DNA from: Eledone cirrhosa
Lineage: Eukaryota
DNA: 64,000 nucleotides
Assembly: GCA_964016885.1 (NCBI GenBank)
Contig: OZ024741.1
Span: forward strand, 118,420,001 to 118,484,000
Direction of reading: 5' to 3'
This document shows, piece by piece, positions 31,121-34,665 of the stretch (position 1 is the first letter of the stretch; every line of letters starts with the position of its first letter). The notes beneath the pieces were generated by a model that did not search any database, was not told the origin of the DNA, and was given only the letters and a program-made list of their open reading frames with translations. The position numbers and the translations under genes were made by a program.

Positions 31121-31142
31121 ATAACTTTGAATAACTTTGAAA

Positions 31143-31358
31143 TTCACCCATTTACCTAGGACAAAACGATCTATCCCCACAAACAGCCACCACCATAATA
31201 CATACTCTAATTTAACACCAACACAACCACCAATAACTCAAACAAGGAATCCACAAATCTGCCGTTTTTCCCTGCGAGACAGATTGTGTTTAGACCGGGA
31301 TTGTCCCTTTACCCATCTCCCGGGGACCCGTCGGATAAATGAAAATAAAATTAAATAA
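31143..31358 (+). pseudogene. LINE ORF1 C-terminal remnant with CCCH-type zinc finger(s)
   Basis: CRFSLRDRLCLDRDCPFTH (C-x8-C-x4-C-x3-H), preceded by the end of a similar repeat ([10 protein letters not shown]). Confidence 0.55.
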
Positions 31359-31556
31359 AATTAAAAATAAAAGCAAAAACAAAAACCATAACCTACATAA
31401 AAAAAATAACCACTACCACAGTCACCAACAGTCTTCTAAACAGGAAACTTCTTCCTCTTTTTTAGCCATAATGAATCTGGCAAAAGAACTGGAAAAAAAC
31501 ATTCGAGCTATCACCCAGCACCACCCTCCACTATCACCCCACTGCACAAACTCCCA

Positions 31557-34500
31557 TTGCTGCCATTAACAAACAAACAAATTAACAACACACCAAAACA
31601 ATTAAAACCATCCACTCTCGCCTCTACATTTTTGCTTAACGCCCAAGGCATCAGCCCTTCCACCAATACTCAAAAATGGAAGATCAAATTCCTGGAGGAC
31701 TGGATTGATGTCCATCCAAACCACATCCCTTTCTTCGTCCTCACTGAAACCCATCTCAGTAACCTCCACTTGGAAGCCGAGGTGAAAGTGAAAAATTTCA
31801 AAGCCATCCGTGCTGATCGCGCTGGCAGAAGAAAGGGCGGAACTGCCATTTATGTCCATAATTCTTTCTCAACAGAGGCTATGAACATATTCACTAATGG
31901 ATACTGTGAGGCAGTCACTGTATTCAGTCAAACCAACAACCTATTAGTAGTTGGGCTCTATAGGCCACCCCAAACGCCTGTACCATGCTTCAAGGAATGC
32001 CTCAACAGCATAAAGTGTTTCATCCAAGAGTGTCACCCTGACAACATCTTAATGATGGGGGACTTCAACCTCCCCGGAGTTGACTGGTCCACAAACACCC
32101 TGCCACCAGGTTCTTCTGCCTCAACCTCTGACAGGGAAGCTGTGGAATCGCTTCTTGACTTCATGGATGATTTCTTCCTATCCCAACTAGTGCTCGAACC
32201 AACGAGGTGCCACAAAAACGTCCTAGACTTAATTTTCAGCAATCACACTGACAATATCCACAATATTGCAGTGGAGAAAACTCTACTCTCTGATCATGAC
32301 ATGGTTCTCTGTGATCTGAGATTCCACCGTCCAATATACAAACCCAATGTCATTTCTCCTGTCCATCCGTTTGACGCTATGGATTTCCACAATGCAAACT
32401 GGGAAGCGATCAGTCATGATCTTGCACATGTCGACTGGTCCTTCACGCACACTCATACACCCACTAACATCAAAAAGTCCTGGCAGACATTTGTGGACAC
32501 TGTTACAAACATATGTGCTAAACACACCCCATTAAGAACTATAAACAAATCTAAGAGCAGAATCCCTAGAAATAGAAAAACACTCATCAGAAAAATTAAG
32601 AGAACGAACAAAAAAATCAACAAGCTGAAATACTGTCAGCAGCAACACATCAACTTGACTGCCATTTCATCACTAGAGATTAAAAAACATAACCTCCAAA
32701 ACAACATAATGTCCCTCATCAACAATCAGAGAAGAGCTGAAGAGGCCTGGGCCATTGAGAAGATCAAACTCAATCCCAAAGTGTTCTTTTCATTTGCAAA
32801 AAAACACAAAATCACTGGCTCTACTGTTGGCCCTCTAATTGATGAAAATGGCACTCTTCAAGACAATGCTAAAACCATGGGTGAGATACTGCAGAAACAA
32901 TACTGCTCTGTTTTCAGCAATCCTGATATGGCCGATCTGGGCTGTATCGGCGATGTTACTCCCCATTACACCTTATCGGACATAACGTTTGGCGCCCCTG
33001 ATGTCTTGGCGGCAATAAAGGAAATCAAGCATAATTCAGCAGTAGGTCCCGATAGGTTCCCTGCTTGTGTCTTGAAGGCGTGTCAACACCAACTTGCTTC
33101 TCCTCTTGCCAATCTGTGGCGGAACTCACTGGATGCTGGATATGTGCCAGAAAACCTTCTATCCCAGTCTGTTGTCCCAGTTTTCAAAAAGGGAAACAAA
33201 TCCCTTGCCGTGAATTACCGTCCAATCTCACTCACCTCTCATATCATTAAGGTATTTGAGCGAGTGGTGAGATCGCGAATGACCCACTTCCTTGAGAGTA
33301 ACAATATGCTGAACTCCAACCAGCATGGATTCCGTAATGGAAGGGATTGCCTGACGCAACTACTGCATCACTTTGATGACATTTTGAGAGCCTTGGGAGA
33401 GGGTTCCAACACTGATGTTATCTACCTTGATTTCAGCAAGGCCTTTGACAGGGTTGATCATAACATTCTACTGAGAAAGCTGTCCAATATTGGTGTCACT
33501 GGAAAGCTGCTGCAGTGGATCAAGAGCTTCCTGTCAAACAGAACCCAACATGTTGTAGTTGAGGGAGTCAAATCAAGCCCAGCCAAAGTCAGTAGTGGAG
33601 TCCCACAAGGCACTGTGTTGGGCCCACTTCTCTTCATCATCTATATTAATGACATCACTGACATCATCAAACACAGCAACATTAAAATTTTCGCTGATGA
33701 TTCCAAGCTCCAAAAGGTCATCAATGGCGTGGATGACCGGATAAGCCTTCAGTCAGACCTACTGGCTGTTACCCAATGGGCAGAAAAGAACAACATGCTA
33801 CTGAACGAAGACAAATTCGAACTGATCCACTTTGGAAAAGAGGATGCTCTGAAACTCCCGTACTCCCTTCCCTCCGGGGAAACTCTCGTGGCATCTAACA
33901 ACATCAGAGACTTGGGAGTAACCGTGGACAGCAACATAAGCTGGACCACGCATATAAGCAGCAAAGTTGACATGGCCCGCAGAATGTGTTCCTGGATCCT
34001 CAGAACCTTCCAGTCGAGAGATTCCCGCACCATTATCCTTCTCTTCTCTACTTTCGCCCGACCACACCTTGAATACTGTTGTCCACTGTGGTCTCCCCAC
34101 ACGAAACAAAGTATCATGAAACTTGAAGCTCCTCAAAGGGCAATCACGAAAAAGATAGATGGCATGTCAGACCTTGACTACTGGGGTCGATTGGAAAACC
34201 TGAAACTTTACTCACTCCAACGTCGCCGTGAGCGTTATATTATCTGCATGATGTGGAAAATGTTCCATCATCACTGCCCAAATGATGTTGGCATCGCCTT
34301 CAAGATACACCCAAGGCTTGGGCCCCGTGCTATCCGTCCCATTCAAAAATCTAAATCGCAACTCATAACAACAATACGGCACAATTATTTCACCTCAATC
34401 GGCCCTGCTCTCTTCAACATCACACCAGGACACGTCAAAACAGAAACTGACCACACAAAATTCAAGAAGTCTTTGGACAAATTCCTCCAAGTAATCCCGG

Positions 34501-34577
34501 ACAAACCACCCACACCCGGATATGTCTCCGCAAACAGTAATTCTCTTCTCGAATGGGCCATGGTGCCCAAATCCTGA
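31557..34577 (+). CDS. LINE ORF2: APE endonuclease plus reverse transcriptase, 1006 aa uninterrupted (true start uncertain)
   Basis: [80 protein letters not shown]. Confidence 0.96.
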
Positions 34578-34665
34578 ATTGAAAGACTTCGCCAGGTGGT
34601 GCTATTAAGTTAGACATGGCCTGGGCCAATACTGGCCAAAACATTTCAAAGTTATTCAAAGTTAT

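Follow-up and report, generated by a model that had tools for sequence, protein, structure and literature searches.

Short inverted copies of a retrotransposon's own tail have been described at the 5' ends of L1 insertions. Meyer et al. (2010, PMC2837659) reported 39 primate L1 loci in which an inverted tail of 14-39 bp (mean 23) lies inside the 5' target-site duplication (TSD), 11 of which retain the 3' tail as well. They proposed variants of twin priming as well as 'dual priming' by two RNAs, and were unable to separate them because poly(A) offers no landmarks; microhomology at the inner joint was absent at their loci. Inverted U5/L1 chimeras show a second RNA being primed from the nick in the top strand (Doucet et al. 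2015, PMC4476161). Penelope-like elements (PLEs) often carry inverted 5' copies and have (TA)n targets (Craig et al. 2021, PMC8557442). The CR1 lineage of the Jockey group was surveyed by Metcalfe and Casane (2014, PMC4120745), and TSDs of 3-5 bp are given for the CR1/L2 clades (PMC4245944). For all five sources, these statements cover the accessible portions of the text. A literature search, with most subscription papers outside its reach, found no report of an inverted tail for any non-L1 LINE. The original prediction for the locus described here had taken it as given that twin priming in L1 leaves the extreme 3' end uninverted, a premise that the 39 loci of Meyer et al. contradict.

The locus lies in the 64-kb stretch of DNA that was analysed (the window). 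Sequence comparison within the window reproduced the 23-bp match that had been predicted: positions 31121-31143 are the exact reverse complement (- strand) of the 3' tail of a LINE at 34643-34665. The inverted tail is joined directly to the truncated 5' end of the LINE, within the limit of <=20 bp used by Meyer et al. Inward, pairing between the two arms ends at 23 bp; outward, it continues for 3 bp (TAT) into the TA tract. Part of the match is ambiguous. ATA (31121-31123) and TAT (34663-34665) both continue the phase of the microsatellite, and these 3 bp of the inverted repeat also fit the target, with an identical TAT/ATA register at both outer joints. Similarly, AAAT at 31140-31143 (+ strand) fits both the inverted tail and normal ORF1, a 4-bp microhomology located by ordinary contigs of three sequencing runs that align from 31140. 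The obligatory insert is just 16 bp (31124-31139), the remainder being ambiguous. A 10-mer core of the tail occurs at two places in the window, the inverted tail and the 3' tail, and no further match to the core of at least 10 nt was found in the window, including its 34,024 bp of TA/TG microsatellite. The exact match, together with the lack of solo tails in that tract, sustains the proposal that the inverted piece stems from the element's own tail. Solo tails frequent enough in TA for a chance adjacency, which had been named as a threat to the proposal, did not appear (0 in 34,024 bp).

As predicted, TA lies on both sides of the element. Pure TA/TG microsatellite occupies 30234-31122 on the left, which is taken as the target, and 34664-36093 on the right. 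On the + strand, the left tract consists of A, T and G only. Both tracts have G but no C on that strand and share the same polarity. The flank therefore shows no mirroring or inversion, and a fold-back read is excluded. A candidate left TSD of 20 bp (31103-31122, + strand) exactly matches the 20 bp that open the right tract (34664-34683), and the two copies enclose the inverted tail. Random cut points in the same tracts reproduce such a match in 3-5% of trials, and this P of 0.03-0.05 applies to low-complexity DNA with boundaries picked post hoc. The match suggests a 20-bp TSD around the insertion, which we treat as tentative.

Profile matches in ORF2 identified the element as a 5'-truncated APE-RT LINE. 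ORF2 (31440-34577, + strand) spans 1045 codons from stop to stop and encodes an N-terminal APE endonuclease (Exo_endo_phos_2, E 7e-14) and a reverse transcriptase (RT; RVT_1, E 4e-31), the arrangement of APE-type non-LTR elements. A profile search found no GIY-YIG domain in ORF2, and the element therefore does not qualify as Penelope-like, a class marked by GIY-YIG and a PLE-type RT. We take the C-terminal motifs of ORF2 to resemble those of CR1, and the element is CR1-like by motif, its clade having been placed without named CR1, L2 or Proto2 references. A quick tree built from 95 RT rows, named references not among them, placed it in a widespread 30-row clade with an SH-aLRT of 100. Protein comparison returned thousands of unnamed relatives, the best of them at 46-49% identity, with one cluster that includes a ctenophore protein; a search of solved structures returned only RTs of L1, R2 and group II introns. 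Proto2 was an early guess at its identity and was dropped, as the literature offered no testable feature. The predicted assignment to an APE-type LINE was borne out, as an APE-RT element that is CR1-like by motif. In the stretch 31440-31880, ORF2 also lacks an AUG before its endonuclease domain starts, the first Met being residue 147, which hints at unconventional initiation.

Translation of the ORF1 remnant (31140-31358, + strand) gives the end of one CCCH finger followed by one complete CCCH finger, with a weak Pfam CCCH match under the cut-off. The remainder of ORF1 seems, from its reading frames, to continue in a different frame beyond an A-rich stretch. The truncation point falls inside a CCCH finger: by visual reading of the ORF1 frame, two Cys of the finger come from the contig letters 5' of 31140 and its His from the window. 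The ORF1s of three relatives (L005:961-2556, L007:304-1704 and L011:243-2753) encode one or more PHD-like fingers followed by three CCCH fingers, with PHD over the Pfam cut-off in one of the three and CCCH under it. The PHD portion is missing from the copy truncated at 31140. The survey of Jockey-group ORF1s (PMC4120745) does not use the word CCCH in its accessible main text, and the PHD plus three-CCCH arrangement is possibly an uncatalogued ORF1 type.

The 3' tail (34643-34665, + strand) consists of two CAAAGTT-type units, its final 3 bp being common with the tract. Two hairpins are predicted in the 3' UTR just 5' of the tail (34594-34622 and 34624-34637, + strand; fold z -3.2, with covariation in 13 aligned 3' ends). 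The 3' ends of relatives likewise show two hairpins, a short linker and a tail of the same type with about two units, and tails of mostly two units were observed both in the family and in its relatives. A short tandem tail after a structured 3' UTR is characteristic of CR1. In the alignment of 13 hand-picked rows, 82.6% of the cells of 12 pairs can pair, compared with 32-47% in slid controls, and 9 pairs change on both sides. The covariation score was reached by none of 500 shuffles, a test that is tilted toward the predicted structure because that structure was drawn from the same 13 sequences. The predicted double hairpin, conserved with compensatory changes in the window and 12 related loci, is likely the recognition element for the ORF2 protein. 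A 25-nt pattern of the 3' UTR had no match in metagenome or genome contigs. Separately, one contig of high depth in run X16 connects 34634 to 34602, so that a subfamily apparently has a 33-bp tandem duplication in its 3' UTR. The very high contig depth at 34572-34665 could reflect either very short copies or a partner SINE.

Logan contigs of four public runs (X15, X16, X1 and X20) were aligned to the element, runs with a small word share being excluded. In the two deep runs, contig depth climbed steeply from the 5' to the 3' side of the element, as for an abundant family of mostly 5'-truncated copies. In three of the four runs (X15, X16 and X1), the alignment of ordinary contigs starts at 31140 and their preceding letters differ from those of the window; run X20 has no cover there. 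These contigs hold ORF1 at the position of the inverted tail, and so the inverted repeat is not a terminal inverted repeat (TIR) of the family; the same ORF1 letters 5' of 31140 agree with the prediction of a truncation within ORF1. The gradient of 5' truncation and the absence of family-encoded terminal repeats are those of an APE-type LINE, and the TIRs common to family copies that would mark a TIR DNA transposon or MITE are lacking from the contigs and from a second copy in the window. The inverted tail was present in none of the 11 'before' rows that remained apart from two ORF1 rows (among the 24 of 897 loose-end rows listed). Among the 15 of 108 joints listed, none starts within 31121-31143; three joints in the contig alignment run from a higher to a lower position (34618, 34634 and 34636). 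The inverted-tail junction is known from one locus, with no spanning contig among the joints listed.

The relatives gave a similar picture. Among the first 80 relative loci, a candidate tandem tail was present in 45, and an inverted match of >10 nt in none of these. Enough sequence on both sides was available for 56 of 108 relative loci: 44 had no inverted match of at least 11 nt, 11 had one of 11-15 nt, and a single locus, L094, exceeded 15 nt with a match of 42 nt. Five of the 12 loci with inverted matches were inspected. The match at L094 was rejected as a second example, as it is a separate dispersed repeat. Locus L088 carries diverged inverted fragments of its 3' region about 5 kb upstream. 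The test is weak, as many contigs may stop short of the true 5' junction. In 28 loci (L081-L108), animal-type LINE sequence occurs in prokaryotic genome assemblies, most likely as host contamination. Neither the contig rows listed nor the relatives, both of them weak tests, supplied the second example that the original prediction called for. We consider it improbable that tail priming at both nicks is a regular outcome in this TA-targeting family with a CCCH ORF1, such that a sizeable share of copies would have inverted tails. If it were, the complex tail would separate dual from twin priming, unlike the homopolymer tails of L1, and PLE-style inverted ends would be tied to target symmetry.

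The second family copy (8453-9121, + strand, by alignment) is 5'-truncated in the endonuclease region and is identical to the main copy at 665 of 669 positions. It meets TA through a 2-bp AT microhomology and has no inverted tail, as had been stated. It had also been put forward as an internal control, a role it can fill by its 5' end only: it enters a 200-N gap at 9122-9321, and its 3' part lies behind this assembly gap. Both copies are preceded by an identical 25-nt tract suffix ending GTGTATAT (8430-8454 and 31098-31122), which may be due to a preferred target, to a common origin or to chance (2-12% in the tract of the second copy). Because of this common left flank, the independence of the second copy from the main copy is uncertain.

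The original prediction held that the tendency to fold back may stem from the palindromic TA target and not from PLE biology alone. Four RTE-like LINE fragments with (CAT)n tails lie in TA tracts of the window on the - strand (16162-17402, 24822-26716, 50068-51268 and 51294-51815). None of these four, nor the one other family copy in the same TA tracts, has an inverted tail; the main copy is thus one of six APE-LINE 5' ends in TA with an inverted tail in the window, too few for a rate. TA alone does not make inverted tails the rule. In contrast to the five other APE-LINE 5' ends, the PLE-like sequences of the window do show large fold-backs, and the predicted attribution is not supported. A Penelope-like element with RT and GIY-YIG lies in TA at 26830-30233 and has inverted ends of 167 bp (99%), and a second PLE-like ORF (41290-43431) has an end to which three fold-back fragments are related.

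Further repeats were noted in the window, although a whole-window repeat search was dominated by microsatellite. End pieces of the Penelope-like element recur at 23115-23211, 23871-23922 and 24049-24141. The PLE-like ORF (41290-43431, - strand) has 713 codons and no Pfam match, with 154-bp direct repeats at 40216-40369 and 43462-43615; an endonuclease fragment with 43% identity lies at 47758-48654 (- strand). Fold-back segments between TA tracts match sequence beside the same ORF (12140-12659, 15921-16049 and 19096-19327), and more fold-back segments lie at 45293-46335, 56395-56482, 58580-59006, 60155-60276, 60579-61038 and 62681-63036. The four RTE-like fragments have a PHD finger after the RT. 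A two-copy repeat in TA tracts (866-1468 and 36094-36511; 408 bp, 97%) has its right end in common and no inverted ends. A presumed SINE motif near 10880-11130 and the TA load make an octopus the probable host.

We consider it likely that a single insertion event made the structure, with reverse transcription on the RNA tail primed from both strands of the nicked target. A (TA)n target has the same sequence on either strand, so the 3' end exposed at each nick would be able to base-pair with the UAU of a tail unit. One primer would have given a cDNA of about 3.5 kb, halted in ORF1. The other would have been halted after 16-23 nt, at least 5 nt short of the predicted second 3' hairpin, where bound ORF2 protein might block the second cDNA. 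The two cDNA ends would then have been joined head to head across AAAT. One insertion is favoured because the inverted repeat is exact, solo tails are absent, the contigs lack the inverted tail, the tracts have the same polarity and there is a candidate TSD. As had been predicted, the best mechanism is one in which the two target strands both prime at the 3' end of the RNA; the TAT/ATA register is identical at both junctions. The length of the TSD, the 4-bp inner microhomology and the restriction to one locus without an empty-site allele are points against it.

Within this account, we favour two primings at the same 3' end, by a second RNA or by re-priming after an aborted start, and give this about an even chance. 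The inverted U5/L1 chimeras are a precedent for a second RNA at the top-strand nick. That the two primers used different units of one long tail is possible but doubtful. An endless pure-repeat template accounts for 21 of the 23 bp of the inverted tail and the true 3' end for all 23, although the 2 bp that favour dual over twin priming equally fit ORF1, for which the chance is about 0.09. Tails of mostly two units are, moreover, short for two primers at once. Together, these observations lean toward two primings at the same 3' end.

Repair after insertion could produce a similar junction. Repair by polymerase theta characteristically leaves a short templated piece flanked on each side by microhomology, and the inverted tail has this form. 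A break near the 5' end would have been closed by a templated insertion through microhomology-mediated end joining: a TA end would anneal at the boundary between tail and TA, copy 16-23 nt of tail and rejoin ORF1 via AAAT, the front of the element being deleted. The template might be the element's own tail, 3.5 kb away, or that of another copy, and the contig depth indicates an abundant family. However, the TA end would have had to pick the tail boundary among very many TA sites, and a preserved 20-bp TSD, if real, would be unexpected after a 5' deletion. We regard repair as unlikely. Still less probable is a separate, extremely 5'-truncated insertion of the same family, in reverse orientation and exactly at the 5' junction. 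The steep coverage toward the 3' end implies that very short copies are common, and family tails are followed by AT-rich or TA sequence, yet the two pieces have no TA between them, their 4-bp overlap belongs to ORF1 and not to the target, and the absence of solo tails from the 34,024-bp tract corresponds to <5e-5 per junction.

Single L1 bodies with two tails and two cut sites are known from tumours (bioRxiv 10.1101/2024.08.27.596794, accessible portion), and two insertions begun at different TA tracts could likewise have been resolved as one bridge with a tail at each end. Such a bridge is very unlikely at tracts that have the same strand polarity and a candidate TSD in common. Equally remote is an assembly or read artefact, or a TIR encoded by the family. 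More than half of the region is microsatellite, a gap lies nearby and no contig among the joints listed spans the junction; but a fold-back read would mirror the flank, which is unmirrored, and against a family TIR the contigs carry ORF1 there while the second copy and relatives are without such an end.

Compared with PLEs (Craig et al. 2021, PMC8557442, accessible text), the locus is alike in its inverted 3'-end copy beside the 5' end, its terminal inverted repeats and its (TA)n target. In contrast, PLEs have GIY-YIG and frequent long inversions, whereas here an APE-RT element shows a tail-only inversion, seen once. With the CR1 lineage, as far as the available text of the survey goes (PMC4120745), it shares two ORFs, APE and RT, a short tandem tail and, in the ORF1 of relatives, a PHD-like finger; it differs in the three CCCH fingers of ORF1, its clade having been compared without named references. 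The candidate TSD of 20 bp, in a microsatellite, is longer than the 3-5 bp given for CR1/L2 clades in the part of PMC4245944 consulted. Like the inverted snRNA/L1 chimeras (PMC4476161, in part), the locus has a short inverted piece head to head with a 5'-truncated LINE, but their template is a different, internally primed RNA and here it is the element's own tail.

A further close system is formed by the 39 L1 insertions with inverted tails (Meyer et al. 2010, PMC2837659), so far as the accessible text describes them. The architecture and mechanism of the inverted tail are already in print for L1, and the anomaly here is real and probably a single event. Because complex tails hold landmarks, a genome-wide set of junctions would test dual priming directly and would show whether the symmetric (TA)n target raises its rate, for which one locus is insufficient. 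Both systems show a truncated LINE with a short inverted tail of similar length at its 5' end and the same two candidate mechanisms. At the L1 loci the inverted tail adjoins the 5' TSD; here it fits a candidate TSD (P 0.03-0.05). Unlike those loci, the element is CR1-like, its tail is complex with two units instead of a homopolymer, its target is (TA)n, its inner joint has a 4-bp microhomology and its long arm measures 3.5 kb, compared with 61-2399 bp. The locus extends a rare insertion anomaly known from L1 to another group of LINEs.
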